Shown in pieces: positions 16,353-59,222 of a stretch of 64,000 bases of DNA (positions are counted from its first letter, which is position 1; every line of letters begins with the position of its first letter). Source of the DNA: Marispirochaeta sp. GTDB taxonomy: Bacteria > Spirochaetota > Spirochaetia > JC444 > Marispirochaetaceae. The position numbers and the translations under genes were made by a program. The DNA lies in contig CAXXFF010000002.1 in NCBI GenBank assembly GCA_963676835.2, positions 512,001-576,000 on the forward strand. Direction: 5' to 3'. The notes below the pieces were generated by a model. The model searched no databases, had not been told where the DNA came from, and saw nothing but the letters and a program-made list of their open reading frames with translations.

Positions 16353-16361
16353 ACGAAACTC

Positions 16362-18217: not shown

Positions 18218-18255
18218 TTTTTTGACAATTCTGCAACACAAGAGTAACATATGGC

Positions 18256-45067: not shown

Positions 45068-45334
45068 TCATCCACCTCGGCAGCAATTCTACGCAGTATA
45101 CTGATAATAACGTGCAAACATCTAATCACTCATTCCCTGAAGTTTCTGTCACAACATCGGAGCGACTTGGTTGTCGGTTGTTCTAACTTAACATAACCAA
45201 TTTTAAATTAAACTCAGCGGGAAGCAGTTCACCATAAACACGATTGTTTTTGAACAGAATCATGTCATTATCAAAAACCAATACTTCTTCCATAAGATCT
45301 CTGCCGTCTGAACGAAGAAAAACATCATCGCAAC

Positions 45335-45823
45335 CTAAAGATGCTTCTGCATATAGACAATATCAAATTCTCTTCCAAGCTTGGTACCTATTCTCCTGAA
45401 TCTCCCGCATTCGCGAAAGCCGTTTTTCATATGGAACCGCTGACTAATCAGATTCTCTCCCGAAATAGAAACCAATACCTGCGTTTTTCCTTTTTTCCTG
45501 GCAGCTTCTAACAGCTGTTCGAGGATAAACGCCCCAACCCCCTGGCCTGTTGATTCTTCCGCCAGGAAGTATGTCAACTCTACGGTCTTCTCAAAGGTCG
45601 GATTGTCCGAATAGGGTTTAAGCTGGCAGAATCCGATCAGAGAATTGGCCTCATTTAGAATGGCAAATCCGCAAAGCCGCCTTGCATTATCAATAAACTT
45701 GTCAAAGTAATCATAGTCAACCTCCTCCGGCCGATAAGCATAGGTTGTATTACGAATGTAGTAGTTATAAATATCAATTACCGGCTTTCTGTGCCGTTCC
45801 TCCAGGGGTTCGAGTGTAACCAT
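45335..45823 (-). CDS. GNAT acetyltransferase (phosphinothricin/YncA-like)
   Basis: IYNYYI, GQGVG, N..S..FH...GF, GTKLG..FD. Confidence 0.85.
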   Translation of the reverse strand: MVTLEPLEERHRKPVIDIYNYYIRNTTYAYRPEEVDYDYFDKFIDNARRLCGFAILNEANSLIGFCQLKPYSDNPTFEKTVELTYFLAEESTGQGVGAFILEQLLEAARKKGKTQVLVSISGENLISQRFHMKNGFRECGRFRRIGTKLGREFDIVYMQKHL

Positions 45824-45897
45824 GCGCAACTCCCTATACATTTTTAGTCGAAAACTGCTCCAGTAGAACTCTAACAATCCTGGCGCGAAGGAGCATA

Positions 45898-46437
45898 TTA
45901 CTTATTCTTACTCCCCAATCTATACAGAAACATTTGTGTATTTCCCGGCCTTGCTATTTCTGCTTCCAGTTTCATGCCGGCTTTAACAGCGATTTTTTGT
46001 GATATTTTATTATCAGGCTTTATTAAAGCTACTACACTATTAATTTTCTTTTCGTTGAATGCATAATTCAATAGCATTTCAGAGACTTCTGATGCATACC
46101 CGTTACCCCAATAAATCTCATCGATAACATAGATAACTTCAACTTCATCCTGGCCTTCTATACTCTTTTTCAACAAACCGCAGTGGCCGATGAGATTATG
46201 GGAAGTCCTCTCTTCCAGAATCCAAAGGTCATACTCTTCTTTAAATGGATTGTCTATATTTTCCTGTACAATAGGTTGGATTTCATTATTGTCTCTTGGA
46301 CCACCCATATATTTGGTTACCGCTGGATTGGTCCAAAGATTCACTACGAAATCTTTATCAGAAGGTACAATATTCCGTAATAACAATCGATTAGACTTTA
46401 TGCTGACAACATATTTTGCAGGTTCATTTTTTTTCAT
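45898..46437 (-). CDS. GNAT acetyltransferase (RimJ/RimL-like)
   Basis: SNRLLLR, IGHCGL, YWGNGYASE, N..S. Confidence 0.88.
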   Translation of the reverse strand: MKKNEPAKYVVSIKSNRLLLRNIVPSDKDFVVNLWTNPAVTKYMGGPRDNNEIQPIVQENIDNPFKEEYDLWILEERTSHNLIGHCGLLKKSIEGQDEVEVIYVIDEIYWGNGYASEVSEMLLNYAFNEKKINSVVALIKPDNKISQKIAVKAGMKLEAEIARPGNTQMFLYRLGSKNK

Positions 46438-46558
46438 ATCATTCTCACGCTATCTTCCGTTCTTCAGTACAGTTTAAGACTGCCTGCAGTTAAACTGTAA
46501 CAGTGTCCATCGATATAGAAGAGGCAGCAATTGTTGTTTCCTGAAACACGGATATTAC

Positions 46559-46795
46559 TTACTCTTCCGGCAAGGCCTCAAATTCTTTCTTCCTGGTTTC
46601 AAACCATTCCTGCATTTTCTGAGGCTTTTCCATTAACGCTTTCATGTCATTCATCGCCTTAAGGTGAGCCTCATCACCTTTTTGAAACATTTCCATTCCA
46701 TGATTTTTACTTAATTCGGCTATCTCTTCGAAAGTGTTTGCCTGAAAAATCTTGTTACAAGCTCCGCCAAGTTGCCTGCAGGTCATTGATTTCAT
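46559..46795 (-). CDS. DUF1059-like small protein
   Basis: MTCRQLGGAC, HG, H. Confidence 0.7.
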   Translation of the reverse strand: MKSMTCRQLGGACNKIFQANTFEEIAELSKNHGMEMFQKGDEAHLKAMNDMKALMEKPQKMQEWFETRKKEFEALPEE

Positions 46796-46921
46796 AAAAA
46801 CTCCTTCATGGAGGACATACTCTTTAAATGATATCAAACATTAAAGAAGTTGCAACCTAACATATAGCAAATAGATAAAGTTGGTCGGTGTCTGATCTTC
46901 GGGAATCGATATATCCAACGA

Positions 46922-47416
46922 CTATAGCTTCTTCTCCATACAATAAAACGGTTGTTCCCTAAACGGAAATGTCACTTCTCCGATATTCGCATACCCTTTA
47001 CTCAAATACAATTTCTGCGCAACCTTATTCGCACTGTATACATCCAATCTTACACTACTGTACTTATTCTTTCTGGCATAAGCTTCAATGAACTCCATCA
47101 GTCTACCTGCGATACCCCGGCCCTGAAAATCAGGATGAACTGCCAGCCTGTGTATAATCAGGTTCTTCCCATCCGCATCGCCCCACTTGACTTGCCCATA
47201 TTCTATTGGCTGTTCTTCGTTGATCGCAAAATAGGCCTCACATAAGTCCTCTTCTTTAATTACATATCCATATCCATTTTTTATATCTTCTTCAACAATC
47301 GCATGAGTGGGATAGTGTTCATTCCATTGATAAATCCCCTGTGATTCCATGGAAGAAATGCATTCAGAAAACATGCTCATAATTATAAGCAGATCTTGTA
47401 CTTGTGCTATGGTCAT
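46922..47416 (-). CDS. GNAT acetyltransferase
   Basis: QWNEHYP, IHRLAVHP.FQGRG, N..A..LY. Confidence 0.88.
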   Translation of the reverse strand: MTIAQVQDLLIIMSMFSECISSMESQGIYQWNEHYPTHAIVEEDIKNGYGYVIKEEDLCEAYFAINEEQPIEYGQVKWGDADGKNLIIHRLAVHPDFQGRGIAGRLMEFIEAYARKNKYSSVRLDVYSANKVAQKLYLSKGYANIGEVTFPFREQPFYCMEKKL

Positions 47417-47544
47417 TCCTATTAATCACCTCACTTGTTTCTTTTTTATACTTTTTATTGAAACACAGGGAAAACTGCACCTGTCATCCCGTGAAGTTGT
47501 TAAAGAAAATATGGGTAGAGCTGTATATCCCCTTTTTTGTATTG

Positions 47545-47997
47545 TTAATTTATGCCTTCAGCAGAATTATAATAATTGCTCACACTTTCTTTTACAAATA
47601 GATACCAATAGATGACTAAACTAAACAGAAGTGAAGGGAGTATATTTATAAGAGTGAGCAACTCATTCATTCTCAGAACCGGTAAAATAATTGATGGAAT
47701 CATATAACTACACATCATCAACAACCTTCCCCATTTTATTCTATTCAAAATTGTATACCCGCAAATTGGACAGATTATACCTGCAGCAACAAAAATCCAG
47801 GGGGCTTTTGTTTTCATAAAATCACCATAAGTCATTGCAACACCATTTACAGTGTAATTCATCCCGGGAAAAGGGATGACAGCTATTATAAACAGACTGA
47901 AACAGAGAAAACATAATGCCACTACACGCAATACAAAAGGCATAGATGCAATCTTTGATCTAAACGCCTGTATATATTCAATAATTTTGAAATACAT
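47545..47997 (-). CDS. Hypothetical membrane protein (distal cassette)
   Basis: Four TM segments, starts just after site 1. Confidence 0.6.
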   Translation of the reverse strand: MYFKIIEYIQAFRSKIASMPFVLRVVALCFLCFSLFIIAVIPFPGMNYTVNGVAMTYGDFMKTKAPWIFVAAGIICPICGYTILNRIKWGRLLMMCSYMIPSIILPVLRMNELLTLINILPSLLFSLVIYWYLFVKESVSNYYNSAEGIN

Positions 47998-48030
47998 TTT
48001 TCTCCTCGAACCAATTCTTTAGTTAATTTC

Positions 48031-48112
48031 ATACAATGTCCCACGAATAGGTGAAGTTGCTATGGGAAATTTGGGGGAAGTCACAAGCGAGACCGTGCAT
48101 TCGCTGTTGTAT
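48031..48112 (-). repeat. attC-like site 1 (degenerate)
   Basis: ATACAAT-gtccc-acgaata...cattcgc-t-GTTGTAT. Confidence 0.7.
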
Positions 48113-48130
48113 GATGTGCTTGTTAGTGTG

Positions 48131-48574
48131 CTATGCCTTTTCCAACATCCTCTTTAAATCATCCATGTCAGCAAGAAAAGCCTTCTTCATCCCACCCACC
48201 ATAAATGAAAAGAGTAAATTGAGAAGTTTCGCAGTAAAAGTAGTTGCTCTTCCGGAAAACTCAATTGAAACTCCGGTTTTACCGCCTTCATCAATAAAAC
48301 GCCATTCTGTAGCGTAGTGCATTCCGTTTGACTGCGCCTCTTCTTTGAAATAGTCGGGAGGGTTGAATTGAGTTATTTCCATTGTTTCGCTGGATTCTTT
48401 TCCAAACATGACTCGGGTTTCTTTAAACTTACTCCCTATGCCGACTTCTCCAGGTGTCAAGATTTCAATACTTTTAATGGCCTTTACGTTGTTTGCTAAA
48501 TTTTTCAGGTCAGAAAACGCATTGAATACTTCAGCCTTTTCTGCATTGATTGTGCCATGGGCTTTAACTTTCAT
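48131..48574 (-). CDS. SRPBCC/polyketide cyclase-like protein (cassette)
   Basis: GIGSKFKETRVMFGK, DMDDLKR. Confidence 0.85.
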   Translation of the reverse strand: MKVKAHGTINAEKAEVFNAFSDLKNLANNVKAIKSIEILTPGEVGIGSKFKETRVMFGKESSETMEITQFNPPDYFKEEAQSNGMHYATEWRFIDEGGKTGVSIEFSGRATTFTAKLLNLLFSFMVGGMKKAFLADMDDLKRMLEKA

Positions 48575-48667
48575 TCTGGTCTCCTTTGCTATTTTCAAAC
48601 TTAACTATAGGTATTTCTATAGAATTCAAAACTGCTTTCAGCTGTTCTGCCGAACACCGGCAGTTTC

Positions 48668-48741
48668 ATACAACATTCCGCGAAGTTGTCGAAAGCAATT
48701 TGGGTGACGCCGCAGGCGGAACCGCTTATTTGCTGTTAGGT
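48668..48741 (-). repeat. attC-like site 2 (internal deletion)
   Basis: ATACAAC-attcc-gcgaa...tatttgc-t-GTTAGGT. Confidence 0.75.
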
Positions 48742-48759
48742 GACGTTCTGTTTTTGCAC

Positions 48760-49059
48760 TTAAGATACTTTCACTTGTTGAATTTTATCGAGTTCTATTT
48801 CAATTTTTGGACGTTCAATACGCAATTCATACTCATCCTGAATTCCAAGCCAAAAATCTGGAGAGTTTCCAAAATACTTAGCTAAGCGAAGAGCAGTGTC
48901 TGCAGTAATCTTACGATTTCCCTTTAGAATTTGAGAAATTCTAGTCGCTGGCATATTTGTATCTTTTGCTAACCGATATGCACTTATGTTCATTGGACCA
49001 AGAAATTCTTCTAGGAGAATTTCTCCTGGAGTTATTACTGGGATTTTTTCCATACTCAC
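48760..49059 (-). CDS. higA: HigA antitoxin
   Basis: PGEILLEEFL, ITADTALRLAKYFG.SPDFWL. Confidence 0.93.
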   Translation of the reverse strand: MSMEKIPVITPGEILLEEFLGPMNISAYRLAKDTNMPATRISQILKGNRKITADTALRLAKYFGNSPDFWLGIQDEYELRIERPKIEIELDKIQQVKVS

Positions 49060-49343
49060 CTCTTATGGTAATCAGTTATCTCGACTTCGGTGGCTGTTCC
49101 ATTATTCCAATAAAAACAAATACGCCACTGAGAATTAATCCTTATGCTGTACTGCCCTTTTCTATCCCCTGAAAGCTGCTCAAGTCTGTTACCCGGCGGT
49201 ACCCTAAGATCATTGATGTCTTTTGATCGATGTATAAGTATTAACTTTCTTAAGCCTATTCTTTGCATTTCTTTCGGGAAATGTTTTGAATAGGTTCCAT
49301 TCCATATTTTCTTTGTGTCTTTATCTTTAAAAGATTCTATCAC
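49056..49343 (-). CDS. higB: HigB (RelE-like) toxin
   Basis: DLRVPPGNRLEQL.GDRKGQYSIRIN.QWRICF, DYH. Confidence 0.93.
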   Translation of the reverse strand: MIESFKDKDTKKIWNGTYSKHFPKEMQRIGLRKLILIHRSKDINDLRVPPGNRLEQLSGDRKGQYSIRINSQWRICFYWNNGTATEVEITDYHKR

Positions 49344-49349
49344 TAATCA

Positions 49350-49378
49350 ATAGTAACGCTTCTCGTTACTAACGTCAA
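49350..49378 (-). promoter_or_regulatory. higBA promoter/operator
   Basis: TTGACG-N17-TACTAT enclosing the palindrome TAGTAACG-N5-CGTTACTA. Confidence 0.75.
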
Positions 49379-49404
49379 GCGTTAATATATTTAAACAGAA
49401 TGTC

Positions 49405-49486
49405 ATTTAACGTTCCGCGAATATATGAAGTTGGCCGAAGGCCAATCTTTGTGAAGCGCAGCGAAACCGCCTATTCGCTGTTATAT
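49405..49486 (-). repeat. attC-like site 3
   Basis: ATTTAAC-gttcc-gcgaata...tattcgc-t-GTTATAT. Confidence 0.85.
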
Positions 49487-49532
49487 GTCGTTTGACTGTA
49501 ACCGTCAATTAAACCTCACCCAGAGAAAAAAA

Positions 49533-51053
49533 TCAGAGGGAAATATTCCATGGCAGCAATTTTTCCCAGTTATCAGATTCATTCATGAGTGGAGCTTCCT
49601 CAAAAACGCGTCTCAGGTAGTCGTTCGGGTTCACATTATTTTGTTTGGCTGTCTCAATCAGTGAATACATGGCACAGGAACTTTCTGCCCCCTTTGGACT
49701 ACCGGAAAATAACCAGTTCTTTCGGCCCAGAACAAACGGCCGAATAGCCTGTTCCGCGCTATTGTTGTCAGGTGTCAGATAAGGAGAATCGAGGTAGTGT
49801 ACCAGTTTCTCCCATTCGTTCAAGGTGTACTGAATTGCTTTCCCAAGCAATAACGAAGGAGGAACCTGCTGACTGCGTTTTTCAAGCCAGGTTCTAAACT
49901 TCTGCAAAACCGGTTCCGCCTGAGATTTGCGCTGGTCAACAAACTGGTCTTCGGGCAATTCCATACTGCGAAGACGCTCTTCAATTCCATACAGTTTCCT
50001 GATGGCATTCAATGCTTCCTGTGCACTTGCTGCTTTCTTCGAGGCCTTTGCAGCTTCATGAAACTTTCGCCGAACATGGGCCATGCAGCCGACATGGACT
50101 ATCTGTTCATTCCCCGCCAGGGCTGTACGATACGCATCATAGCCGTCGGTCTGTAAAAAGCCGCTGAATCCATCGAGAAGTTCTTTAATATGCCGGGACC
50201 CGCGGGTTTCCCGGTATGAATAAAGCAATCCCGGGTTTTCCGGAGGGCCGCCGCGGGCAAGCCACATATAGGATTTCGCCGTGTCAGGGCGTTCCGGTTC
50301 TCCGTGTACCTGGACCGGGGTTTCATCCATGTTGATGACCGGCCCTGACCGGATATGCGTTTTCAGTGTTTCTATTAACGGTTCAATTTTATCAAACGCC
50401 GCCTGCTGCCAGTTGCTCATGTTCTGACGGCTTATGTGGATGCCGATTCTTTCAAACCGTTTCTCCTGCCGGTAATAGGGCAGATGATCGACAAACTTGT
50501 TCACTATGATGAAGGAGATCAATCCTGGCGTTACAATGCTTTTAGGGATAATACTTGCAGGGGGATCAGCAACCCTTACCGCCGGCTTCTCTTCATCCCC
50601 GGAGCCTTCACAGTTTTTACAGGCATACTTGGGGCGGATAATCCGTTCCACCCACATCTTCGGGGGGATTACCTGTAAGCGCTCGCTGGTCTCTTCGCCG
50701 ATACGAACCAGCGCATGGCCGCAGGCACACTGTTTTTCTTCTTCGGGAATATCAATGATGATCTCATCCCGGGGAAGGCTTTCATCAATTGGTTTTCTGC
50801 CGGATTTCCTGCGGGGATGGGACTGAACTGGTACGGAAGTCTCTGATGCATCGTTCTCCGAAGTACCATTCTCTTCAAGTCCGAACAACAGCGGTTGATA
50901 CTCATCCAGTTGTTCTTTTTCACTTTTACGGCCAAATTTCTGAAGAAGAAGCAATTTGTACTGCTCTTCCAAGGCACCATAACGCTGCTCCCAGGAACTA
51001 TTAAGTTCGTGGATATAGTCCTGTACTTCCCTGGGAAGTTCTGTAACATCCAT
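49533..51053 (-). CDS. tnpC: IS66 DDE transposase (outer)
   Basis: Zn-finger, KFVDHLPYYRQ, DET, TDGY, CMAHVRRKF, NN.AE.AIRP, GRKNWLF. Confidence 0.95.
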   Translation of the reverse strand: MDVTELPREVQDYIHELNSSWEQRYGALEEQYKLLLLQKFGRKSEKEQLDEYQPLLFGLEENGTSENDASETSVPVQSHPRRKSGRKPIDESLPRDEIIIDIPEEEKQCACGHALVRIGEETSERLQVIPPKMWVERIIRPKYACKNCEGSGDEEKPAVRVADPPASIIPKSIVTPGLISFIIVNKFVDHLPYYRQEKRFERIGIHISRQNMSNWQQAAFDKIEPLIETLKTHIRSGPVINMDETPVQVHGEPERPDTAKSYMWLARGGPPENPGLLYSYRETRGSRHIKELLDGFSGFLQTDGYDAYRTALAGNEQIVHVGCMAHVRRKFHEAAKASKKAASAQEALNAIRKLYGIEERLRSMELPEDQFVDQRKSQAEPVLQKFRTWLEKRSQQVPPSLLLGKAIQYTLNEWEKLVHYLDSPYLTPDNNSAEQAIRPFVLGRKNWLFSGSPKGAESSCAMYSLIETAKQNNVNPNDYLRRVFEEAPLMNESDNWEKLLPWNISL

Positions 51054-51114
51054 GCTAATAAGAATTCTAGCATGCCGTACATTCTATGTAAATTCCTTTA
51101 CACCAATAATATGC

Positions 51115-51462
51115 TTACGAAACCCGCGAATATTCCAAACTAGTATGTTCATTCCAAAAATCGATGCCTTTCAACAGCATCGATAGCTGTTCCGGGGTAA
51201 TCATACGTGCAGTTTCTTCGGTTACGGGCCAGGGAAACTTATGCTTTTCCAGTTTCTTCTGCCAGAGACAGAATCCGTTCTTGTCCCAGTAGAGGGCTTT
51301 CATAATTCGTCGTTCGCGGTTGCAGAACAGAAACAGATTGCCGCTTAACGGATTTTCATTCATATAGTCCTGCACCATGACAACTAAGCCGTTGATTGCT
51401 TTACGCATATCAGTGATGCCTGGCCGGATAAATATCTGTACCGCTGATAAATCTGGGGTCAT
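51115..51462 (-). CDS. tnpB: IS66 accessory protein (outer)
   Basis: TDMRKAINGL, LYWD.NGF.LW.KKLE. Confidence 0.95.
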   Translation of the reverse strand: MTPDLSAVQIFIRPGITDMRKAINGLVVMVQDYMNENPLSGNLFLFCNRERRIMKALYWDKNGFCLWQKKLEKHKFPWPVTEETARMITPEQLSMLLKGIDFWNEHTSLEYSRVS

Positions 51463-51693
51463 TCATAAACCCTCAAGGCTGTTAATACTGCTTTAAGCTG
51501 GTCATGGTTTGCTGTTACCGGCAGAGTAATAACAATATCGTGCAACTTTATGGTAATGGTTTCTTTTTTGGATAAATGATGAAAAGAGCTTTTTACTGGT
51601 ATGAACCCGGCTGCTGCTGTTTCAGAAGCTAATCCTGTTTGTACGGCACGTTTCCTTTGTAACCGTCAATTAAACCTCACCCAGAGAAAAAAA

Positions 51694-53223
51694 TCAGAGG
51701 GAAATATTCCATGGCAGCAATTTTTCCCAGTTATCAGATTCATTCATGAGTGGAGCTTCCTCAAAAACGCGTCTCAGGTAGTCGTTCGGGTTCACATTAT
51801 TTTGTTTGGCTGTCTCAATCAGTGAATACATGGCACAGGAACTTTCAGCCCCCTTTGGACTACCGGAAAATAACCAGTTCTTTCGGCCCAGCACAAATGG
51901 CCGGATGGCCTGCTCCGCGCTATTGTTGTCCGGCGTCAGATAAGGCGAATCAAGGTAGTGTACCAGTTTCTCCCATTCGTTCAAGGTGTACTGAATTGCT
52001 TTCCCAAGCAATAACGAAGGAGGAACCTGCTGACTGCGTTTTTCAAGCCAGGTTCTAAACTTCTGCAAAACCGGTTCCGCCTGAGATTTGCGCTGGTCAA
52101 CAAACTGGTCTTCGGGCAATTCCATACTGCGAAGACGCTCTTCAATCCCATACAGTTTCCTGATGGCATTCAATGCTTCCTGTGCACTTGCTGCTTTCTT
52201 CGAGGCCTTTGCAGCTTCATGAAACTTTCGCCGAACATGGGCCATGCAGCCGACATGGACTATCTGTTCATTCCCCGCCAGGGCTGTACGATACGCATCA
52301 TAGCCGTCAGTCTGTAAAAAGCCGCTGAATCCATCGAGAAGTTCTTTAATATGTCGGGACCCGCGGGTTTCCCGGTATGAGTAAAGCAATCCCGGGTTTT
52401 CCGGAGGGCCGCCGCGGGCAAGCCACATATAGGATTTCGCCGTGTCTGGGCGTTCCGGTTCTCCGTGTACCTGGACCGGGGTTTCATCCATGTTGATGAC
52501 CGGCCCTGACCGGATATGCATTTTCAGAGTCTCAATTAAAGGTTCAATCTTTTCATACGTCATCTGCTGCCAGTTGCTCATGTTCTGACGGCTTATGTGG
52601 ATGCCGATCCGCTCAAATCGTTTCTCCTGCCGGTAATAGGGCAGATGATCTACAAATTTATTCACTATGATGAAGGAGAGCAATCCAGGCGTTACAATGC
52701 TTTTAGGGATGATACTTGCAGGGGGGGCAGCAACCCTTACTGCCGGCTTCTCTTCATCCCCGGAGCCTTCACAGTTCTTGCAGGCATACTTGGGACGGAT
52801 AATCAGTTCTACCCACATCTTCGGGGGGATTACCTGTAAGCGCTCGCTGGTCTCTTCGCCGATACGAACCAGCGCATGGCCGCAGGCACACTGTTTTTCA
52901 TCTTCGGGAATATCAATGATGATCTCTTCCCGGGGAAGGCTTTCATCAATTGGTTTTCTGCCGGATTTCTTGCGGGGATGGGACTGAACTGGTACGGAAG
53001 TCTCTGATGCATCGTTCTCCGAAGTACCATTCTCTTCAAGCCCGAACAACAGCGGTTGATACTCATCCTGTTGTTCTTTTTCACTTTTACGGCCAAATTT
53101 CTGAAGAAGAAGCAACTTGTACTGCTCCTCCAAGGCACCGTAGCGATGTTCCCAGGAACTGTTTGCTGTCTCAAGAGAGTGAATGTAGTCTTGTACTTCC
53201 TTCGGAAGGGCTGCAACATCCAT
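51694..53223 (-). CDS. tnpC: IS66 DDE transposase (inner)
   Basis: Near-identical to outer tnpC. Confidence 0.95.
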   Translation of the reverse strand: MDVAALPKEVQDYIHSLETANSSWEHRYGALEEQYKLLLLQKFGRKSEKEQQDEYQPLLFGLEENGTSENDASETSVPVQSHPRKKSGRKPIDESLPREEIIIDIPEDEKQCACGHALVRIGEETSERLQVIPPKMWVELIIRPKYACKNCEGSGDEEKPAVRVAAPPASIIPKSIVTPGLLSFIIVNKFVDHLPYYRQEKRFERIGIHISRQNMSNWQQMTYEKIEPLIETLKMHIRSGPVINMDETPVQVHGEPERPDTAKSYMWLARGGPPENPGLLYSYRETRGSRHIKELLDGFSGFLQTDGYDAYRTALAGNEQIVHVGCMAHVRRKFHEAAKASKKAASAQEALNAIRKLYGIEERLRSMELPEDQFVDQRKSQAEPVLQKFRTWLEKRSQQVPPSLLLGKAIQYTLNEWEKLVHYLDSPYLTPDNNSAEQAIRPFVLGRKNWLFSGSPKGAESSCAMYSLIETAKQNNVNPNDYLRRVFEEAPLMNESDNWEKLLPWNISL

Positions 53224-53285
53224 ACTGAAAAAAATTCTAGCATACAGCTCTTTCTCTGTAAATTCCTTTACACCATTAAAATGCT

Positions 53286-53633
53286 TTAAGAAACACGGGA
53301 ATATTCCAAAGTAGTATGTTCATTCCAGAAATCGATGCCTTTCAACAGCATCGATAGCTGTTCCGGGGTAATGGCAAGAGCATCTTCTTCAGTTACGGGC
53401 CAGGGGAATTTATGCTTTTCCAGTTTCTTCTGCCACAGGCAGAAACCATTCCGGTCCCAATACAATGCCTTCATGATTCGTCGTTCGCGGTTGCAGAACA
53501 GAAACAGATTGCCGCTTAACGGATTTTCATTCATATAGTCCTGCACCATGACAACTAAGCCGTTGATTGCTTTACGCATATCAGTGATGCCTGGCCGGAT
53601 AAATATCTGTACGGCTGATAAATCTGGGGTCAT
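53286..53633 (-). CDS. tnpB: IS66 accessory protein (inner)
   Basis: As outer tnpB. Confidence 0.95.
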   Translation of the reverse strand: MTPDLSAVQIFIRPGITDMRKAINGLVVMVQDYMNENPLSGNLFLFCNRERRIMKALYWDRNGFCLWQKKLEKHKFPWPVTEEDALAITPEQLSMLLKGIDFWNEHTTLEYSRVS

Positions 53634-53959
53634 TCATAAACCCTCAAGGCTGTTAATACTGCTTTTAGCTGGTCATGATTTGCTGTTACCGGCAGAGTAA
53701 TAACAATATCGTGCAACTTTATGGTTATGGTTTCTTTTTCGGATAAATGATGAAAAGAGCTTTTTACTGGTATGAACCGGGCTGCTGCTGTTTCAGAGCC
53801 TATTCCGGTTTGTACGGCACGTTTCCTTTCGGCTTTTTTCCAGCTGTAAAACGTTGTGGGTGGTATTTCGTGCTGCCGGCAATACTCCTGCCCGCTTAAC
53901 CCGCTTTTTTCCCAATTTCTAAGATGTTCACACTGCTGTTCCCGGTTATATTTGACCAT
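53630..53959 (-). CDS. tnpA: IS66 HTH protein (inner)
   Basis: WEKSGLS..EYC..H.I...TFYSW, FIPV. Confidence 0.9.
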   Translation of the reverse strand: MVKYNREQQCEHLRNWEKSGLSGQEYCRQHEIPPTTFYSWKKAERKRAVQTGIGSETAAARFIPVKSSFHHLSEKETITIKLHDIVITLPVTANHDQLKAVLTALRVYE

Positions 53960-54232
53960 GCGATTCCTCCATTAAGGGAGGATTGTAGGGCATTCATTGA
54001 TGTCGGCATAAGGTGGGGTTTAATTGACGGTTACTTTCCTTTCGGCTTTTTTCCAGCTGTAAAATGTTGTGGGTGTTATTTCGTGCTGCCGGCAATACTC
54101 CTGCCCGCTTAACCCACTTTTTTCCCAATTTCTAAGATGTTCACACTGCTGTTCCCGATTATATTTGACCATGCGATTCCTCCATTAAGGGAGGATTGTA
54201 GGGCATTCATTGATGTCGGCATAAGGTGGGGT

Positions 54233-54652
54233 TTAATTGACGGTTACGTTTGACTCTTGCACCCAGTTTTCAATGATCAGTTTGGGTACTCTCTCAAATT
54301 CCTTTACATTATTTGTAACAAGACATAAGTTTCTTGTTACACACTGTGCGGCTATTTGGAGATCATATGGCCCAATTGGGGTACCTAATTTATTTAGATA
54401 AGCACGTATATACCCGAAGTTCTCAGCGTCTAATTCACTAAAAGGGATAATTTCAAAAGGAGACAGAAATCCATATAGTAATTCCCTATTTCGATCAGGA
54501 TATAAACTTTTTGCTATTCCATACTCCAGTTCAGCTATAGTAATTGAAGAAAGAGCAATATTAAACAACTCTTCATCCTCTATCCTGATTTGAAGTTCGG
54601 GATATTTCTTTTTCATTAAATAAATACAAATATTTGTATCAAGTAAATACAC
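54233..54652 (-). CDS. vapC: VapC PIN-domain toxin (last codons supplied by IS66 end)
   Basis: YLLDTNICI, GPYDLQIAA, LVTNN..EF.RV. Confidence 0.92.
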   Translation of the reverse strand: MYLLDTNICIYLMKKKYPELQIRIEDEELFNIALSSITIAELEYGIAKSLYPDRNRELLYGFLSPFEIIPFSELDAENFGYIRAYLNKLGTPIGPYDLQIAAQCVTRNLCLVTNNVKEFERVPKLIIENWVQESNVTVN

Positions 54653-54882
54653 TATATACTTTCCCGTTCTTGCATTTCGGGCTGCTCTCTCCCTTCCGAG
54701 AATAAATCATCGGAAAACATATTTATACTATTTCTAAAAGAAGACCATAAATCATCTTTTGAAGTTAGAATAATAGAGCTTCCTACTTTATGTATAAGGA
54801 GCTCCGAATCAGAAATCGCATATTCTTTTGGGATTCTAATAGCTTGGCTATTGCCACTTCGGAATACTTTTACCGTTTGCAT
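54652..54882 (-). CDS. vapB: VapB (AbrB-type) antitoxin
   Basis: KVFRSGNSQAIRIPKEY. Confidence 0.92.
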   Translation of the reverse strand: MQTVKVFRSGNSQAIRIPKEYAISDSELLIHKVGSSIILTSKDDLWSSFRNSINMFSDDLFSEGREQPEMQERESI

Positions 54883-54902
54883 ATTTTATGCCTCCTGCAT
54901 CA

Positions 54903-54931
54903 AGTATATACCTATGTGTATACATTTTCAA
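54903..54931 (-). promoter_or_regulatory. vapBC promoter/operator
   Basis: TTGAAA-N17-TATACT overlapping the imperfect palindrome GTATATAC-N4-GTGTATAC. Confidence 0.7.
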
Positions 54932-54943
54932 GAGTCAAATGAC

Positions 54944-55038
54944 ATATAACGTCCCGGGGTTATGTGACGTACGGCGTAAGCCGTATGTGGCGCAGCCCGA
55001 GGAGCGTATAGCGACGAAGCACATAGCCCCTGTTATAC
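54944..55038 (-). repeat. attC-like site 4
   Basis: ATATAAC-gtccc-ggggttatgtg...cacatagcccc-t-GTTATAC. Confidence 0.88.
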
Positions 55039-55052
55039 GACGTTTCATATAT

Positions 55053-55460
55053 CTACCTTTGAGCAATTATTTCTTTTACAAACTCTTTTGAAAAATCGTA
55101 TTGCTCAGAGTTTTCCACCTCAAATTTTATATTATATCCTTCCGAATATTTTCTGGCGGTTGATACCATTTCTTTATATTTTACCATATCCTCTTTAGAC
55201 TCAAAATATTCTTTTTCATTTTTTCTAATAGCCATACTCAGAATAAAGGAATCGTTCAACGGAATAAAATAGTAAAGTGCTTTTTTCTTATCTTCTACTT
55301 TTTCCATCCAGCCACTCGATCTTGAATGATTCCAGGTGTGTTGAAAATCTTTTGTCAATTTATTTAAATCTTGATAATATTCGGAAACAACACCGAGTGC
55401 TTCATTTATTTTTTCGTTTGTAGGTTCATTCGATTTTTCTTTAAACGGTCTTTCACTCAC
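55053..55460 (-). CDS. DUF3788-like protein (cassette)
   Basis: PT...I..ALG, SGW..K..KKKAL.Y.IP, YSEG. Confidence 0.65.
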   Translation of the reverse strand: MSERPFKEKSNEPTNEKINEALGVVSEYYQDLNKLTKDFQHTWNHSRSSGWMEKVEDKKKALYYFIPLNDSFILSMAIRKNEKEYFESKEDMVKYKEMVSTARKYSEGYNIKFEVENSEQYDFSKEFVKEIIAQR

Positions 55461-55491
55461 TTTTTACTCCATTTTAGATATGTGATATGTC

Positions 55492-55637
55492 GTATAACGT
55501 GATGCGAATATGCGAAGATATTCGCTGAAATTATACTATCATGTTTGTCCATTAGAACAAACATGATTTTTGTAAAATGCAAGAGCGGATATTTTGAGCG
55601 AAGGCTGAAAGCCGTAGCCGCATATTCGCAGTTAGTA
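55492..55637 (-). repeat. attC-like site 5
   Basis: GTATAAC-gtgat-gcgaatatgcg...cgcatattcgc-a-GTTAGTA. Confidence 0.88.
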
Positions 55638-55659
55638 GAAGTGTTTAATTTTTTTATAA

Positions 55660-56106
55660 CTATAATTCGTTTGTTCTACCAAAAGCAAAAGTTGCTTTTG
55701 ATGTGTATTTTGCAGAAAACCCTTTCATTTCTGAATCCATGGCTTGATCTAACATTATTATTGCATTTGCACCTTTTGTTTTAGCATAATCCTTCAATAA
55801 TTTATAATACTCAGAAGCATCTGGTTGCTTATAATTCATATTGAACCCTGATAATTTGTTCGTTGTATTTATTGTGATCATTCCAATTTGATTGTATTTA
55901 AAAGAAGGTGGTATTAACATATTAGAATGATATGCAACGGCTGAATCAACCGCTAATGCAGGATAAACTTTACCTGTTGGTATATACAATTCTTCTAAAT
56001 CAGTCATTGTATAATCTGATACATTACTTTTTTCTTTGTTTGTAGATGTTGTTACACATCCCAATAATGTTAATAAAAGTACTAAAATTAAAATTAACTT
56101 TCTCAT
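55660..56106 (-). CDS. Hypothetical lipoprotein (cassette)
   Basis: Lipobox LLGC, AKTKGANAII (YbjQ-like). Confidence 0.7.
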   Translation of the reverse strand: MRKLILILVLLLTLLGCVTTSTNKEKSNVSDYTMTDLEELYIPTGKVYPALAVDSAVAYHSNMLIPPSFKYNQIGMITINTTNKLSGFNMNYKQPDASEYYKLLKDYAKTKGANAIIMLDQAMDSEMKGFSAKYTSKATFAFGRTNEL

Positions 56107-56185
56107 GGTCACTCCTTAATTATTAATAAATTATTTATAGCAAAATTTCTTCTTAAAATCAATATTCTATAATTTTAAACACTTC

Positions 56186-56445
56186 TACTAACGTTCCGCG
56201 AATATATGAATTTTCTATCAAAAACACGGGTTTATTTTCAATATAACGCCGTTTTCTGCTGCAGACCGTGAAATTGGCGCAGAATGTGCGTAAGCAGATT
56301 CTGTGACAATAGGGCTGACAGTAGCAAAACATGGTTATATTGTCGTTTATTATAGCATGTAAATTGTTTATTTCGGAACCAATTCTTTTTGATAGAAATT
56401 TGGCGAAGCCCGGAGCGAAGCGGAGCATATCATTCGCTGTAAAAC
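56186..56445 (-). repeat. attC-like site 6 (260 bp, long internal insert)
   Basis: TACTAAC-gttcc-gcgaatatatg...catatcattcgc-t-GTAAAAC. Confidence 0.8.
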
Positions 56446-56473
56446 GAAGTTTTCTTGGGGGCGCGTACAATAA

Positions 56474-56890
56474 TTAATGCTGATGTACGAAGCTGTTAAT
56501 AAAATTTCCATCCATATCAAAAACAATGTCGAATGTATCAGGATCAATTCCATACCCAGTCCACCAACCTATTGAATATAATAATATATCTCTCTCTTCT
56601 TCATAATCATTGATAAAGGCATCCTCTGGTTCTCCTAAGAGTTCAATTGTTTCTAGTTTATTTAATTTTTTCTCATTCAAAATACTTTGTAGTGATTCTA
56701 CCATTTTCCCGCGATCATTATCGGTGCCCCAGTTTCCAGCATTTTCCTTCCAAACCACTTCATTAAAAGGGAGATCATCGAAAATATTTCCACCTTTTGC
56801 AATGTAGGAGACACAACTAGAAAAAATTAGAGTTGCGAAGAATATCAGAAAAACTGAAATGTTGTTCCTATGCGTAAAGATCGTTTTCAT
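56474..56890 (-). CDS. Hypothetical lipoprotein (cassette)
   Basis: Lipobox FSSC, RGKMV..L, IELLGEP. Confidence 0.7.
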   Translation of the reverse strand: MKTIFTHRNNISVFLIFFATLIFSSCVSYIAKGGNIFDDLPFNEVVWKENAGNWGTDNDRGKMVESLQSILNEKKLNKLETIELLGEPEDAFINDYEEERDILLYSIGWWTGYGIDPDTFDIVFDMDGNFINSFVHQH

Positions 56891-56918
56891 TTTGAAAAAT
56901 ATCCCCCAAGAAAATTTT

Positions 56919-57009
56919 GTTTAACGTTCTGACAATATATGAAGTCTACCACGGAGTGGGAGATTTGGCGAAGCCCGAAGCGAAGCGGAGCATATATTGT
57001 CTGTTAGAA
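56919..57009 (-). repeat. attC-like site 7
   Basis: GTTTAAC-gttct-gacaatatatg...catatattgtc-t-GTTAGAA. Confidence 0.88.
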
Positions 57010-57063
57010 GTAGTTACATCCTGCCATTGCATAATAAATAAACCGAAAGGAAAACACTAAGAT

Positions 57064-57513
57064 TTAATACAGTGGTTCAAACTGCTTATTCTCGGGATTC
57101 CAGAAATATACACGAGCATTATTAATGAAGTTTTTCCCTTCATTTGTGTAGACTGATAACTTTAAAGTTATATCGTCTCCTATTTCAATTTTATACCCAT
57201 AGAAGACTGAATCTCGACGCATTGGCACTTTGTGAGGATCTTTGCTCCAATAGTCTGTAATCATCTCTTTCTCAATTCTAAAAACTTCATGAATAGATCT
57301 GGAGCTCGTAGAAAGGATTAGCATTTGGTCAAAAAAAGTTTGACTATCGTCAATGTAGTGGAATCCGAAATATAAACCCTGAGGTTCGAAGGAGGTGATA
57401 ATGAACTCTTTTTCATTAAAAAAAGATTTCATTTCATCGTCAATTGACTCAGAGAATGAAAAATATGAAAAACCTAAAAGAAAAACTAGCGTGATGAAAT
57501 ATTTTTTTGACAT
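57064..57513 (-). CDS. Exported hypothetical protein (cassette)
   Basis: Signal peptide, bounded by sites 7 and 8. Confidence 0.65.
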   Translation of the reverse strand: MSKKYFITLVFLLGFSYFSFSESIDDEMKSFFNEKEFIITSFEPQGLYFGFHYIDDSQTFFDQMLILSTSSRSIHEVFRIEKEMITDYWSKDPHKVPMRRDSVFYGYKIEIGDDITLKLSVYTNEGKNFINNARVYFWNPENKQFEPLY

Positions 57514-57550
57514 GTACATCTCCATAACCAATTGAAAAGGATGTAATTAC

Positions 57551-57640
57551 TTCTAACGTTCCGGGTTTATATGACGTTTTTGCAACGCAAAAATGTGGCG
57601 TAGCCCAAGCCGAAGGCGCAGCATATAAACCCTGTTATAC
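57551..57640 (-). repeat. attC-like site 8
   Basis: TTCTAAC-gttcc-gggtttatatg...catataaaccc-t-GTTATAC. Confidence 0.88.
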
Positions 57641-57660
57641 GATGGTTTTTGGTTCAGTTG

Positions 57661-57942
57661 TCAGGCCTTCTGAATTTTCCAAACTGAATCCTTTAATTCC
57701 CTATATGCTTCCATACCAGGACTGAGATCAGAAATATCATTTATTGATGAATCAATATTCAAAGCTTCTTGCATACTGATCACACGGCCATCTTCTGTAT
57801 TATTAGTTGTTCCACAAAAAAATCCCCAAGAATGATCATCCTCATAGTGCACAACTTTTAAAATGGGATATCCTTCTTCAAGCACTTGCTTTGTGGTAAT
57901 TGCAGCAGTATTTGGCGATTGATCAAAATTCCATTTATCCAT
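57661..57942 (-). CDS. DUF2185/immunity-like small protein (cassette)
   Basis: VVHYEDDHSWGFFCG, ID.SI..I.DL.PG..A.R. Confidence 0.6.
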   Translation of the reverse strand: MDKWNFDQSPNTAAITTKQVLEEGYPILKVVHYEDDHSWGFFCGTTNNTEDGRVISMQEALNIDSSINDISDLSPGMEAYRELKDSVWKIQKA

Positions 57943-57983
57943 CAGCATACCATTTCTATAAAATAAGTTTTCCAAAAACTATC

Positions 57984-58134
57984 GTATAACGTCTCGCCAA
58001 TATGCGAAGTTGCCTGGCACCCCATCGGGGTTGATAAATGCTGGGAAAATTGTAGCACGGTTTTTCCGGCATTTGTCAAAGGCAATTTGGGTGCAGTGAG
58101 CAAAGCGAACGGAACCGCATATTGGCTGTTATGC
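57984..58134 (-). repeat. attC-like site 9
   Basis: GTATAAC-gtctc-gccaatatgcg...cgcatattggc-t-GTTATGC. Confidence 0.88.
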
Positions 58135-58336
58135 GAAGGAATCAGACTTTTATTCCTGCTCACACCAGCGTCGTTCTTGCCGGGTGCGACTGCACCTTAA
58201 TGAAGCCTTCCACTTGGACGGTCTTTATTACGCATTGCGTATTAATTCCCGGCCCGCGCAACTCTTTAAAAAGCAGGAATTACGACACCATTTTTAATGG
58301 TGCGACTATATATCCCCACTGATTCTTTCGCATAAC
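58128..58336 (-). other. ORF-less first cassette with multiple stems (candidate ncRNA or regulatory cassette)
   Basis: Bounded by an 18-bp IR, no credible ORF, several inverted repeats. Confidence 0.6.
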
Positions 58337-58352
58337 TACACTTATCCGCATT
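58325..58352 (-). promoter_or_regulatory. attI-like / dif-like primary recombination site
   Basis: TTTCGCATAA-CTACAC-TTATCCGCAT. The last cassette end is not followed by an attC core; the site abuts the integrase. Confidence 0.7.
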
Positions 58353-58373
58353 GTACATTAAGTTCCCCATTAT

Positions 58374-59222
58374 ATGAAGCAACATAATACTTCTGCGGTT
58401 ATTATAAGTATGAGCACTACATATATTGAGAAAATAGCCAGAGAAATGCAGGATCATATGATCTTCCGTAACTATTCACGCCACAGCATTACAGCATACA
58501 TTTCTCACATTCGATCATTTCACAACTTTTGCAGCAATACCAGTGAATCCAACCGCGAAAAACGTATCATTGCGTATATAAATCAATGTCCCCACTCAAG
58601 CAGGACAGTGGCGCGGTCGGCCTTGAAATACCTCTATGTAAATATCCTGAAAATCCCGGTTTCCATTTTAGATGTTAAGGTGCGTCATAGCCAAAAAATC
58701 CCCCCGGTTTTATCACGAGCCGAGGCTATCAGTCTTATCAACTCCATTACAAATTGTAAGCACCGTCTTATGATCGCCCTTTTGTATGGATCAGGATTAA
58801 GGGTAAGCGAAGTTGTCAATTTGAAAGTTGGAGACGTACTTCTTTCGCGTCAAAAGCTTCATATCAGGCAGGCGAAGAACAAAAAAGACAGGATTGTAGT
58901 CCTGTCCGCAGAATTGATGCCCCAGATAATTAACGATATAGCCGGCAGATCACCGAAAGAGTGGCTGTTCTTAAATCAATCTGGAAAGAAATATGCTATC
59001 CGGACAGTTCAGGCTGTTTTCAAAAAAGCCCTTCACAAGTGCAATCTCAACAGAAATGCCAGCTGTCATTCCCTCCGCCATTCGTTTGCAACATCACTGC
59101 TGGAAAATGGTGTGGACATAAGGCTTATACAGGCTCAACTTGGGCACTCAAATCTCAAAACAACCATGCGCTATACAAGGATTTCCGGAGCTATGATTGA
59201 AAATCTTCAATCTCCTTTATAG
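58374..59222 (+). CDS. Tyrosine recombinase (integron-integrase-like, lacking IntI insertion)
   Basis: N-terminal RNYS.HSI.AY, then YGSGLRVSE, K.KKDR, HSLRHSFAT, LGH, TTMRY. True start may be 58410. Confidence 0.9.
   Translation: MKQHNTSAVIISMSTTYIEKIAREMQDHMIFRNYSRHSITAYISHIRSFHNFCSNTSESNREKRIIAYINQCPHSSRTVARSALKYLYVNILKIPVSILDVKVRHSQKIPPVLSRAEAISLINSITNCKHRLMIALLYGSGLRVSEVVNLKVGDVLLSRQKLHIRQAKNKKDRIVVLSAELMPQIINDIAGRSPKEWLFLNQSGKKYAIRTVQAVFKKALHKCNLNRNASCHSLRHSFATSLLENGVDIRLIQAQLGHSNLKTTMRYTRISGAMIENLQSPL

Follow-up and report, generated by a model that had tools for sequence, protein, structure and literature searches.

An integron-like cassette array in Marispirochaeta with attC sites predicted to fold into dif-like hairpins carrying G·T pairs

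The window analysed here is a 64,000-nucleotide stretch of a Marispirochaeta sp. contig (CAXXFF010000002.1, positions 512,001 to 576,000). By reading the paired arms and scoring with a covariance model, which was trained on wobble-bearing sites and slightly favours the finding of such sites, we located nine cassettes and nine attC sites between positions 48037 and 58336 of the window (Table 1). The cassette ORFs are on the - strand, and the gene of a tyrosine recombinase, P0001, points away from the array. As in an integron array, the nine folded sites have an AAC...GTT core and paired R and L boxes, and sites of the same type are present in all six genomes of the genus. A search of the sites against Rfam matched no family. 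Toxin-antitoxin and GNAT genes are among the cargo, a feature shared with classical integrons. One cassette, number 7, is split by two IS66-family copies and one partial copy (about 49498-54247). Cassette content is shuffled between genomes of the genus; for example, cassette 8 has a 95%-identical counterpart in the array of another genome, and two cassettes common to different genomes have retained the attC downstream of their ORF.

Table 1. Recombinase gene, attI, cassettes and attC sites in the window. Cassettes are numbered from attI; pairs given for cassettes are those at position 11 of the inverted repeat, and bit scores are those of the covariance model.
Feature	Position	Strand	Details
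Recombinase P0001	58374-59222	+	282 aa; Pfam PF00589, E=3e-39
attI	58325-58352	+	duplex site, 11-6-11, from alignment of six genomes; left arm 58325-58335 (end of newest cassette), centre CTACAC 58336-58341, right arm 58342-58352
Cassette 1	58128-58336	-	no convincing ORF; 18-nt repeat; G58138·T58326
attC 1	57990-58128 (C1 to G1)	+	53.1 bits; centre G57991·T58127; bulge 57992-57995; L stem 57996-58006 with 58116-58126; L-arm wobble G58009
Cassette 2	57634-57990	-	104-aa ORF; 19-nt repeat; G57644·T57980
attC 2	57557-57634	+	86.1 bits
Cassette 3	57003-57557	-	155-aa ORF; 20-nt repeat; G57013·T57547
attC 3	56925-57003	+	78.6 bits
Cassette 4	56439-56925	-	138-aa ORF; 23-nt repeat; G56449·T56915; further G·T at position 8, A·A at position 3
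attC 4	56192-56439	+	long, atypical; 21.3 bits for the part matched by the model, rest read from the sequence; GTA replaces GTT; one extra base in L stem; no G at L-arm wobble position
Cassette 5	55631-56192	-	150-aa ORF; perfect 18-nt repeat; G55641-C56182
attC 5	55498-55631	+	38.7 bits; centre G×A, not G·T
Cassette 6	55032-55498	-	DUF3788; 24-nt repeat; G55042·T55488
attC 6	54950-55032	+	85.8 bits
Cassette 7	49480-54950	-	MazE-like antitoxin and PIN toxin; 18-nt repeat; G49490·T54940
attC 7	49411-49480	+	90.6 bits
Cassette 8	48735-49411	-	HigB-like toxin and HTH antitoxin; 19-nt repeat; G48745·T49401; two extra G·T, positions 5 and 6
attC 8	48674-48735	+	43.1 bits; decayed, 5' L arm partly deleted
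Cassette 9	48106-48674	-	SRPBCC/polyketide-cyclase-like; repeat pairs over about 9 nt only; G48116·T48664
attC 9	48037-48106	+	52.7 bits; decayed, AAT replaces AAC

P0001 resembles both IntI and XerA, scoring 193 bits on NCBIfam XerA_Arch (cut-off 220) and 177 bits, in two stretches, on TIGR02249 (cut-off 265). Its best solved relative, IntI4 (2a3v), was also matched in two stretches, and residues 190-212 of P0001 lie opposite residues 182-247 of IntI4, a difference of about 43 residues. By these comparisons, P0001 lacks the IntI-specific insertion and falls outside the IntI subfamily. Its scores on XerC (142 bits, cut-off 335) and XerD (132 bits, cut-off 330) likewise place it outside XerC/XerD; unlike the enzymes of the dif/XerCD system, it is a separate paralogue, and the genome contains two better XerC/D-like genes, with 281.6 and 309.5 bits on XerD. 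Orthologues of P0001 with 50-71% identity are present in all five other genomes of the genus, and in all six the array begins with a conserved attI, from which the recombinase gene is separated by 38 bp. Judged from its array and attI, the region can be classed as integron-like, with a recombinase outside the IntI subfamily. It shares with classical integrons (for example, VchIntIA with VCR sites, 2a3v) a divergent recombinase gene, an adjoining attI and an array of promoterless cassettes, but differs from them in that the recombinase has no IntI insertion and the sites have neither extrahelical bases nor a symmetric unpaired spacer.

In the six genomes, the 11-6-11 layout of attI is kept; its sequence agrees between them to the right, from TAAC onwards, and varies to the left. 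In this way, attI lies beside the integrase gene with variable cassette content on one side, as in an integron. Because conservation begins at TAA|C, the crossover is placed on the AAC side of the + strand, before C58336. This position, the - strand ORFs and the divergence of the recombinase gene from the array all agree with the original prediction that the + strand is the bottom strand. The crossover at AA|C of the bottom strand, the AAC...GTT core and the covarying R and L stems are also features of classical integrons.

To describe the cassette repeats, the GTT-side arm of the + strand was paired without gaps to the AAC-side arm of each cassette, the G of GTT being position 1. We obtained the same counts as those first reported: position 11 is a G·T pair in eight of the nine cassettes and G-C in the ninth (55631-56192), and the 13 mismatches in the eight long repeats (18-24 nt) comprise 11 G·T, one A·A, one T·T and no A·C. 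The five other genomes contributed 24 additional unique cassettes, 22 of which had G·T at position 11. Among the 30 unique cassettes of the six genomes that passed a repeat filter with an equal penalty for every mismatch type, 27 had this pair and three were without the R-arm wobble, and G·T was found in 46 of 61 adjacent attC pairs of the six genomes when no filter was applied. Once the AAC/GTT core and position 4 are set aside, few positions of either arm are conserved as well as position 11: 42 of 44 AAC-side arms have T there, and 38 of 45 GTT-side arms have G.

The proposed excess of G·T over A·C persisted in the homologous arrays. When position 11 was excluded, the repeats had G·T and A·C pairs in a ratio of 15:3 (binomial p=0.0075), the three A·C pairs occurring in repeats of relatives, and in the inner L stem the bias was weak (20:9 in the best 40 sites, p=0.06; 25:17 in the best 66, p=0.28). 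The excess does not stem from base composition, since G is scarce on the + strand in this region (GC skew -0.055). The wobble pattern exceeds chance. It is hardly credible that it arose by chance, by common descent or through a one-strand mutational bias (C-to-T, for instance), and this reading is largely refuted by the counts: the sample comes from one genus, the counts from six related genomes are not fully independent and transitions dominate mutation, yet the 30 arm pairs have the wobble in common while being unrelated in sequence, the base composition is unfavourable, the Watson-Crick A that would restore the pair replaces G11 in only 3 of 45 GTT-side arms, and the same mispair is found again in a second arm, described below.

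A new feature that emerged from the predicted folds is that the folded + strand of attC appears to imitate dif, with two 11-bp arms flanking a 6-bp centre that bears a 4-nt bulge. The R arm consists of positions 2-12 of both cassette-end arms; the centre is formed by C-G, G·T and the next four base pairs, which belong to the L stem, and it has a bulge of four pyrimidines on the strand cut after TAA; and the L arm combines 7 bp of the L stem with 4 bp of a small hairpin. In 42 of 47 sites, this hairpin is stacked on the L stem without a gap. The predicted folds have an unbroken 11-bp L stem, the central G·T and a single 4-nt bulge on the 5' side, the central pair being G·T in 42 of 47 sites and in 18 of the 19 rows of one alignment (A1). 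The L stem has compensatory changes in seven of its 11 pairs, and 171 cells were altered on both sides as against 43.6 in shuffles, none of 500 shuffles giving as high a value. One 11-nt + strand motif, roughly WTAYRYGAMGT, occurs twice per site, one copy per arm, and the R'' arm and L'5-L'15 share its profile (r=0.81; none of 20 other offsets exceeded 0.46). In both arms, a G at arm position 10 lies opposite T, position 11 of the cassette repeat being position 10 of the R arm. In the L arm, where this is the third pair of the stacked hairpin, G·T was found in 24 of 27 unique stems and was missing from three, and the adjoining pair covaries (A-T in 19, C-G in six). Because the second motif copy forms G·T at the same arm position, the wobble is a feature of both putative recombinase-binding arms.

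Extrahelical bases were sought in the predicted folds and none was found, and the sites thus have neither the extrahelical L-box bases nor the unpaired central spacer of a classical attC. Passages of Bouvier 2009 (PMC2727003) describe the conservation of classical sites as confined to AAC and GTT, and the words 'wobble' and 'G-T' are absent from its main text. In the present sites, by contrast, the arms are 11 bp long and conserved in sequence as far as position 12, three G·T pairs are fixed, a 4-nt bulge is present, and pairing specific to each cassette continues for 18-24 nt past the core. The dif layout of 11-mer, hexamer and 11-mer described in parts of Carnoy and Roten 2009 (PMC2731167) and a cut after ...TAA at the arm edge are shared with dif/XerCD as presented there, and the consensus R'' arm differs at two of 11 places from the common XerD arm in a table of that paper. 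The dif-type core, two 11-bp arms and a 6-bp centre with inner ends ...ATAA and TTAT..., is present in attI as a duplex and in attC as a folded strand with a bulge. Unlike dif, which is one duplex site per chromosome, the system here has as one partner a bulged, folded single strand, with G·T at arm position 10.

The + strand fold was more stable than the - strand fold in all nine sites, the summed folding energies being -310.6 and -250.3 kcal/mol, respectively, in the context of the circular cassette and -206.3 and -171.1 kcal/mol in that of the array. The R stem of a site within the array combines arms from two cassettes and pairs only at conserved positions (about 72% of cells at 2-12); the cognate R stem forms only in the excised circle. 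The lower energy of the + strand fold, the fixed wobbles, the bias outside position 11 and the covariation of the L stem uphold the claim that selection acts on a + strand fold, and a folded bottom-strand substrate appears well supported by these sequence features. Recombination of duplexes without any folding, as by XerCD at dif or at the pdif sites of Acinetobacter plasmids, with the repeats serving as paired binding sites, is improbable. The enzyme is Xer-like and without the IntI domain, and the 3' half of each site, as a duplex, does have its L'' and R'' arms 6 bp apart, but the attI crossover is at the AAC-side arm, outside that half; in the duplex, the cut arm is 10 bp from the L' arm, and no partner arm lies at a 6-bp distance from it; duplex binding would have no need of a covarying L stem and stacked hairpin; and the mismatches are one-sided. 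The pdif modules, as described in part of the literature on them, resemble the present cassettes in being gene modules bounded by Xer-type sites, but their sites are XerC/XerD duplexes in alternating orientation, without a hairpin design or an adjacent dedicated recombinase with attI. The strand bias alone fits RNA and single-stranded DNA alike, a G·T in DNA being a G·U in + strand RNA, and the hairpins might therefore belong to a transcript antisense to the cassettes that folds and tolerates G·U. We regard this as highly improbable, since the AAC/GTT core, the attI junction and the shuffling of cassettes between genomes point to DNA recombination, the cognate stem needs the excised circle and would be absent from a linear array transcript, and Rfam offered no match.

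The locus is thus probably an integron-like cassette platform of a short Xer/IntI-like recombinase, in which the attC sites act as + strand hairpins that mimic dif. We infer that the hairpin is the substrate, that P0001 is the enzyme concerned, and that the wobble as such is recognised. Each arm would bind one recombinase monomer; the R-arm monomer would cut TAA|C; one strand would be exchanged with duplex attI or another attC; and the junction would then be resolved by replication, the route of classical integrons and of CTX integration by XerCD. Parts of PMC3442271 describe how folded, single-stranded DNA of a phage and a duplex dif exchange one pair of strands through Xer recombinases, and how replication is thought to finish the reaction. 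CTX integration into dif1 as described there is similar in its folded single-stranded mimic of dif, its single strand-pair exchange and its lack of an IntI-type domain, a resemblance of design only; the phage genome integrates once through the host XerCD, whereas the present locus has many cassettes in an array and a recombinase of its own.

At the wobble places, the folded + strand would present G·T, the duplex G:C or A:T, and the folded - strand C·A; because G·T would occur in the folded + strand only, the wobbles could tell the correct substrate from the two other forms. The one-strand G·T in both arms most likely marks the strand that is folded and recombined. The original prediction was that the position-11 wobble may be a recognition or orientation determinant replacing the extrahelical bases read by IntI, which is in keeping with the absence of such bases and of the IntI insertion, but it needs amending in that the wobble is not confined to cassette ends and is present in both binding arms. 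A role as a recognition mark is plausible, and we tentatively suggest, as a possibility rather than a probability, that the G·T at arm position 10 is what enables a domain-less Xer-type recombinase to distinguish the folded bottom strand from the duplex and the folded top strand. If so, the wobble takes the role that extrahelical bases and the IntI insertion have in classical integrons, and the system could resemble a stage between Xer/dif systems and integrons.

The G and the T might also each be kept for sequence reasons of their own, the hairpin still being the substrate but the geometry of the pair going unrecognised; for example, the G may be read within the 11-nt motif, and the T may be needed in the AAC-side arm as the future left arm of duplex attI. 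The arm-position-10 G does belong to a motif found twice per site, the AAC-side arm does become the attI left arm and there matches ordinary dif arms with A:T at this place, as tabulated in part of PMC2731167, and both bases are kept where the arms pair poorly, with G·T still in 19 of the 30 pairs that failed the repeat filter. However, the L-arm T lies on the returning strand of the small hairpin, which never becomes part of attI, and it is retained as often as noted above while its neighbours covary freely. Since two independent contexts give the same mispair, selection on the pair itself is favoured, and an incidental wobble seems rather unlikely. Other asymmetries could also set polarity, namely the 4-nt pyrimidine bulge on the cleaved strand, which might suffice by itself, and the central G·T. 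A passage of Bouvier 2009 (PMC2727003) indicates that in classical sites the central spacer can impose strand choice once the bulged bases have been removed.

The same genome has a classical IntI on contig 3 (355.6 bits, above the family cut-off), and full-length IntI proteins above the cut-off are encoded in all six genomes of the genus, so that the sites cannot be tied to the short recombinase by presence and absence. The sites may then be substrates of the classical IntI, with the short recombinase having another job, and the classical array does contain copies of one cassette with the arm types of the sites studied here. This assignment is nevertheless quite improbable, given that the short recombinase gene keeps its place beside the conserved attI throughout the genus and that the sites are without the bulged bases that IntI reads according to the relevant part of Bouvier 2009 (PMC2727003). 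In addition, the classical integron has sites of its own that are built differently, with a near-symmetric spacer and, in the predicted fold, single unpaired bases on the 3' side of the attC stem.

The array consists of nine units on the - strand that adjoin a divergent tyrosine-recombinase gene, the short recombinase of 282 aa (coordinates of all features are collected in the table). Neighboring units are separated by a repeat that reads, on the + strand, ...TAAC, 5 nt (mostly GTTCC), an 11-nt box L', a variable middle, a complementary 11-nt box L'', T and GTTA.... This is the layout of an integron: a recombinase, an attI site and cassettes each ending in an attC site. The ORFs of the units are small, all on the - strand, and specify two toxin-antitoxin pairs, a DUF3788 protein, an SRPBCC protein and several proteins without a known family. 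One unit, the MazE/PIN cassette, is split by an insertion 18 nt from its GTT end, made up of two IS66-family copies in tandem (91-97% similar) and a duplicated end of 213 nt. An Rfam scan of positions 44000-59000 gave no relevant family. The cassette next to attI (209 bp) has no convincing ORF. It lies between the array and the recombinase start codon, which follows the crossover point by only 38 bp, so that this cassette, attI or their vicinity must hold the promoters of both sides. To the left of the array, genes for three GNAT acetyltransferases and ORFs of 92 and 150 aa are separated by gaps containing fragments that resemble decayed sites, and the array may once have been longer leftward.

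Aligned across six genomes, the region 5' of the recombinase gene revealed a conserved sequence, ...TAA/C TACNC TTATCCGCATT..., whereas the sequences left of TAAC were divergent, which places the crossover between TAA and C (marked by the slash) on the + strand. The attI site is a duplex site with an 11-bp arm, a 6-bp centre and a second 11-bp arm. Such recombinases usually cut 3' of ...TAA; with the crossover at this point, exchange would involve the + strand, which is the bottom one with respect to the cassette genes. Two cassettes common to different arrays (94% and 95% identical) retain the attC downstream of the ORF and not the other one, which lends modest support, as sites throughout this family resemble one another fairly closely. 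Four candidate joints at repeat arms, in which contigs of one public run departed from the array (short sides of 23-67 letters, depths of 2.9-6.7), were taken as repeat or assembly effects that speak neither for excision nor against it.

A loose hairpin scan of the window was unspecific, giving as many matches on the control strand (38 against 35), and we therefore adopted a covariance model built from an alignment of 19 clear attC sites, which yielded 85 matches at E<=1 on the fetched loci. Compensatory changes were found in seven of the 11 pairs of the L stem, and cells changed on both sides numbered 171 in the 85 matches vs 43.6 in shuffles, with none of 500 shuffles reaching as high a value. 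When the partner column was shifted, pairing fell from 91% to 29-46%. The + strand fold, calculated with DNA energy parameters, was more stable than that of the - strand at all nine window sites, whether the arms were those of the cassette itself (summed energies of -310.6 vs -250.3 kcal/mol) or those found in the array (-206.3 vs -171.1 kcal/mol).

For the cassette inverted repeats, the GTT-side arm of each cassette was paired with its own AAC-side arm without gaps, giving repeats of 18-24 nt in eight cassettes and about 9 nt in the ninth. The original prediction had placed a G·T pair at position 11, counted from the G of GTT, in eight of the nine cassettes and a G-C pair in the remaining one, and had counted 11 G·T and no A·C among the 13 mismatches of the eight long repeats; recounting reproduced these figures exactly, the other two mismatches being one A·A and one T·T. 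The 85 matches formed 61 adjacent site pairs, whose arms were extended with a score penalizing all mismatch types equally. A repeat of at least 14 nt was present in 31 of the 61, of which 30 were unique, and in these position 11 was G·T in 27, G-C in two and T·T in one (G·T in 22 of the 24 unique pairs from the relatives alone). Without the filter, G·T occupied this position in 46 of the 61 pairs, the 30 pairs failing the filter being mostly interrupted by inserted elements or containing weak or decayed sites. At the other repeat positions of the 30 unique pairs there were 15 G·T or T·G, three A·C or C·A and 12 other mismatches (p=0.0075 for G·T vs A·C). The predicted excess of G·T over A·C thus extended to the cassette repeats of homologous arrays, but in the L stem it was slight (20 vs 9 in the best 40 sites; 25 vs 17 in the best 66), and the L-stem counts argue against a general strand bias. 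Base composition is not the source of the G·T excess, because the + strand is G-poor (GC skew of -0.055).

Position 11 was among the best-kept positions of both arms once position 4 and the AAC/GTT core are set aside: G8, G11 and T12 were conserved in 36, 38 and 38 of 45 GTT-side arms, and C8, T11 and A12 in 32, 42 and 30 of 44 AAC-side arms. An A opposite T11, which would give a normal pair, occurred in only three of the 45 GTT-side arms, indicating that the wobble is preferred over a Watson-Crick pair. In the array, where the R stem of each hairpin, formed by the cassette-end arms, is a hybrid of the arms of two cassettes, position 11 was still G·T in 37 of 47 sites.

We found that the motif of the GTT-side arm recurs inside the fold. 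The consensus of its positions T2-T12, TTATGTGAAGT, resembles that of a stretch that starts at the fifth base of L' and runs four bases past its end, ATATACGAAGT (profile correlation of 0.81 at the matching offset and at most 0.46 at 20 other offsets); the complement of the AAC-side arm has the consensus TTATGTGAAAT. In 42 of the 47 sites a small hairpin is stacked directly on the L stem, such that the four bases past L' pair with the returning strand. Among 27 unique stems, pair 1 was A-T in all 27; pair 2 was A-T in 19, C-G in six, a compensatory change, and otherwise in two; pair 3 was G·T in 24 and G-C, A-T and T-A in one each; and pair 4 was T-A in 26. These counts treat sites singly, as the MAFFT alignment of the 19 sites misaligns the returning strand of one site class and therefore undercounts this helix. 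Together, the shared motif and these pairs define two 11-bp arms with the same + strand motif, each with a G·T at arm position 10, the equivalent of repeat position 11. The centre between them comprises C-G, G·T, a 4-nt pyrimidine bulge and four L-stem base pairs, that is, 6 bp with the bulge on the cleaved strand; its central pair was G·T in 42 and A-T in four of the 47 sites (G·U in 18 of the 19 alignment rows), and the bulge was TTCC in 20 of the 47. Both the arm sequences and the 11-6-11 layout are those of dif as given by Carnoy and Roten (PMC2731167). In the duplex, 10 bp separate the cut arm from the L' arm, and the dif spacing is therefore reached in the fold only. Pairing between the 5-nt spacer and the five bases preceding L'' was discarded, being true of one site class only.

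The wobble might act as a mark, in that a G·T at both arms is present in the folded + strand only, the same positions being G:C or A:T in duplex DNA and C·A in the folded - strand. Binding, cleavage, single-strand exchange and reading of the wobble by the short recombinase would follow by analogy with what is established for IntI (PMC2727003; PMC4792948) and for XerCD with the CTX phage (PMC3442271), whose folded dif mimic is of the kind closest to the wobble attC sites. The main alternative is that G and T are each conserved for separate reasons; this is weakened by the second arm, the T of which sits on a segment never used in attI. The sites follow a simple, mutable rule, in which one G·T mispair is repeated in each arm of the dif mimic and the centre is bulged. 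If it holds, this would explain how an ordinary Xer-type enzyme could be directed to single-stranded DNA. Such a rule would bear on the origin of integrons from Xer systems and would help software to detect arrays that current integron finders call integrase-less or miss. The words 'wobble' and 'G-T' are absent from the main texts of PMC2727003 and PMC3053210, and searches of the literature outside subscription journals and supplements found no paper on fixed wobbles in attC sites and no description of an Xer-type enzyme serving an array of cassettes.

Integron integrases are thought to require a special domain and bulged bases to recognize the folded single strand. The system described here acts like an integron, yet it lacks both of these defining features, the IntI domain and the extrahelical bases. 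The closest solved relative of the short recombinase is the Vibrio integron integrase IntI4 (2a3v), which aligned in two stretches, residues 190-212 of the query standing opposite residues 182-247 of IntI4 (about 43 residues fewer in the short recombinase); XerA-type enzymes aligned end to end. The protein scored under the curated cut-offs of the IntI, XerA, XerC and XerD models, and two genes elsewhere in the genome are better XerC/D-like candidates. The five other genomes of the genus that were compared all encode orthologues with 50-71% identity, and the covariance model detected the site type in all six; it found none in one other genome of the family (81% complete). Around class-level homologues with 35-41% identity (L036-L043), a hairpin scan showed no such site and there were no array-like repeats, L040 containing repeats of another kind. 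Scanning metagenome contigs with the recombinase gave four loci, all at 34-36% identity; in L058, the one metagenome locus read, no array was seen in the upstream DNA.

A full-length classical IntI (355.6 bits, above the cut-off) is encoded on contig 3 of the same genome, and such an IntI also occurs in all five relatives of the genus. In the window genome the protein seems to be extended far at its N terminus (open frame of 434 aa). The associated integron has an attI and about eight long sites of a differing type. The 4-nt spacers of these sites are nearly symmetric, and the 3' side of the predicted stem bears single unpaired bases, a design that Bouvier et al. (PMC2727003) give for classical sites. 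Two pairs of enzyme and site type thus coexist in one genome: IntI goes with sites that have bulged bases, and the domain-less enzyme with wobble sites that have none. This contrast is consistent with the wobble substituting for extrahelical bases but falls short of proof. All six genomes carry both enzymes, so co-occurrence is no guide to which of them uses the sites; adjacency and the conserved attI assign the wobble sites to the short recombinase.

Locations of the array, its sites and related elements (G000, genome of the window; G002 and G003, relatives; L numbers, fetched loci)
Feature	Location	Strand	Remark
Nine-unit array	window 48106-58336	-	
Short recombinase gene	window 58374-59222	+	
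Genes left of array	window ~45800-48040	-	
Decayed-site-like fragments	window, e.g. near 45880, 46850, 47490		
IS66-family copies	window 49498-54247		
Cassette with G-C at position 11	window 55631-56192		
Cassette next to attI	window 58128-58336		
Long site class	window 57996-58126; L029 9457-9621, 11974-12143; L044 10723-10893; L056 4090-4259		140-170 nt
Group II introns	L031 8385-8496, 10187-11004, 12147-12965, 17779-18597	-	arm ends also in L032, L048, L050, L051
~150-nt element	L033 1170-1340, 4874-; L050 2286-2456; L055/L056 pair at 25093		
Classical IntI gene	G000 contig 3, 28113-29042		
Classical integron	L062 ~11000-19950; L063		
Wobble-arm cassette in classical array	L062 14880-15628, 18635-19383		two copies
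Orphan half site	G000 contig 1, 88010-88090 (L008 1484-1560)		
Remote site clusters	G002 contig 1, 591900-602973 (L044); G003 contigs 3, 4, 5		

Several elements were found inserted in the sites. Group II introns about 0.9 kb long and without an ORF (Rfam scores of 76 bits for D1-D4 and 58-71 bits for D5/6) interrupt many sites of one relative immediately after position 11 in the AAC-side arm, and the T's at positions 10 and 11 of these arms come from the intron end. A recurrent element of about 150 nt, placed exactly after TAAC and ending in ...GTTTTGTTGATC ahead of the 5-nt spacer, has its own hairpin with a stem like a classical L box. In several sites the stacked hairpin has a near-identical loop insert of about 60 nt (stem AAGTTGCCT.../...AGGCAATTT, span of 82 nt), which gives rise to the long site class. 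Sites of the wobble type also cluster far from any short recombinase gene in two relatives, resembling the integrase-less attC clusters known for classical integrons, and an orphan half site (TAAT, spacer, L' box and stacked hairpin) without a matching 3' half lies far from the array on contig 1 of the window genome. Within the classical array, a wobble-arm cassette with G·T at position 11 occurs twice, flanked by the 3' half of its site to the left and by the 5' half to the right, as would result from opening a cassette circle within the loop of the small hairpin stacked on the L stem.
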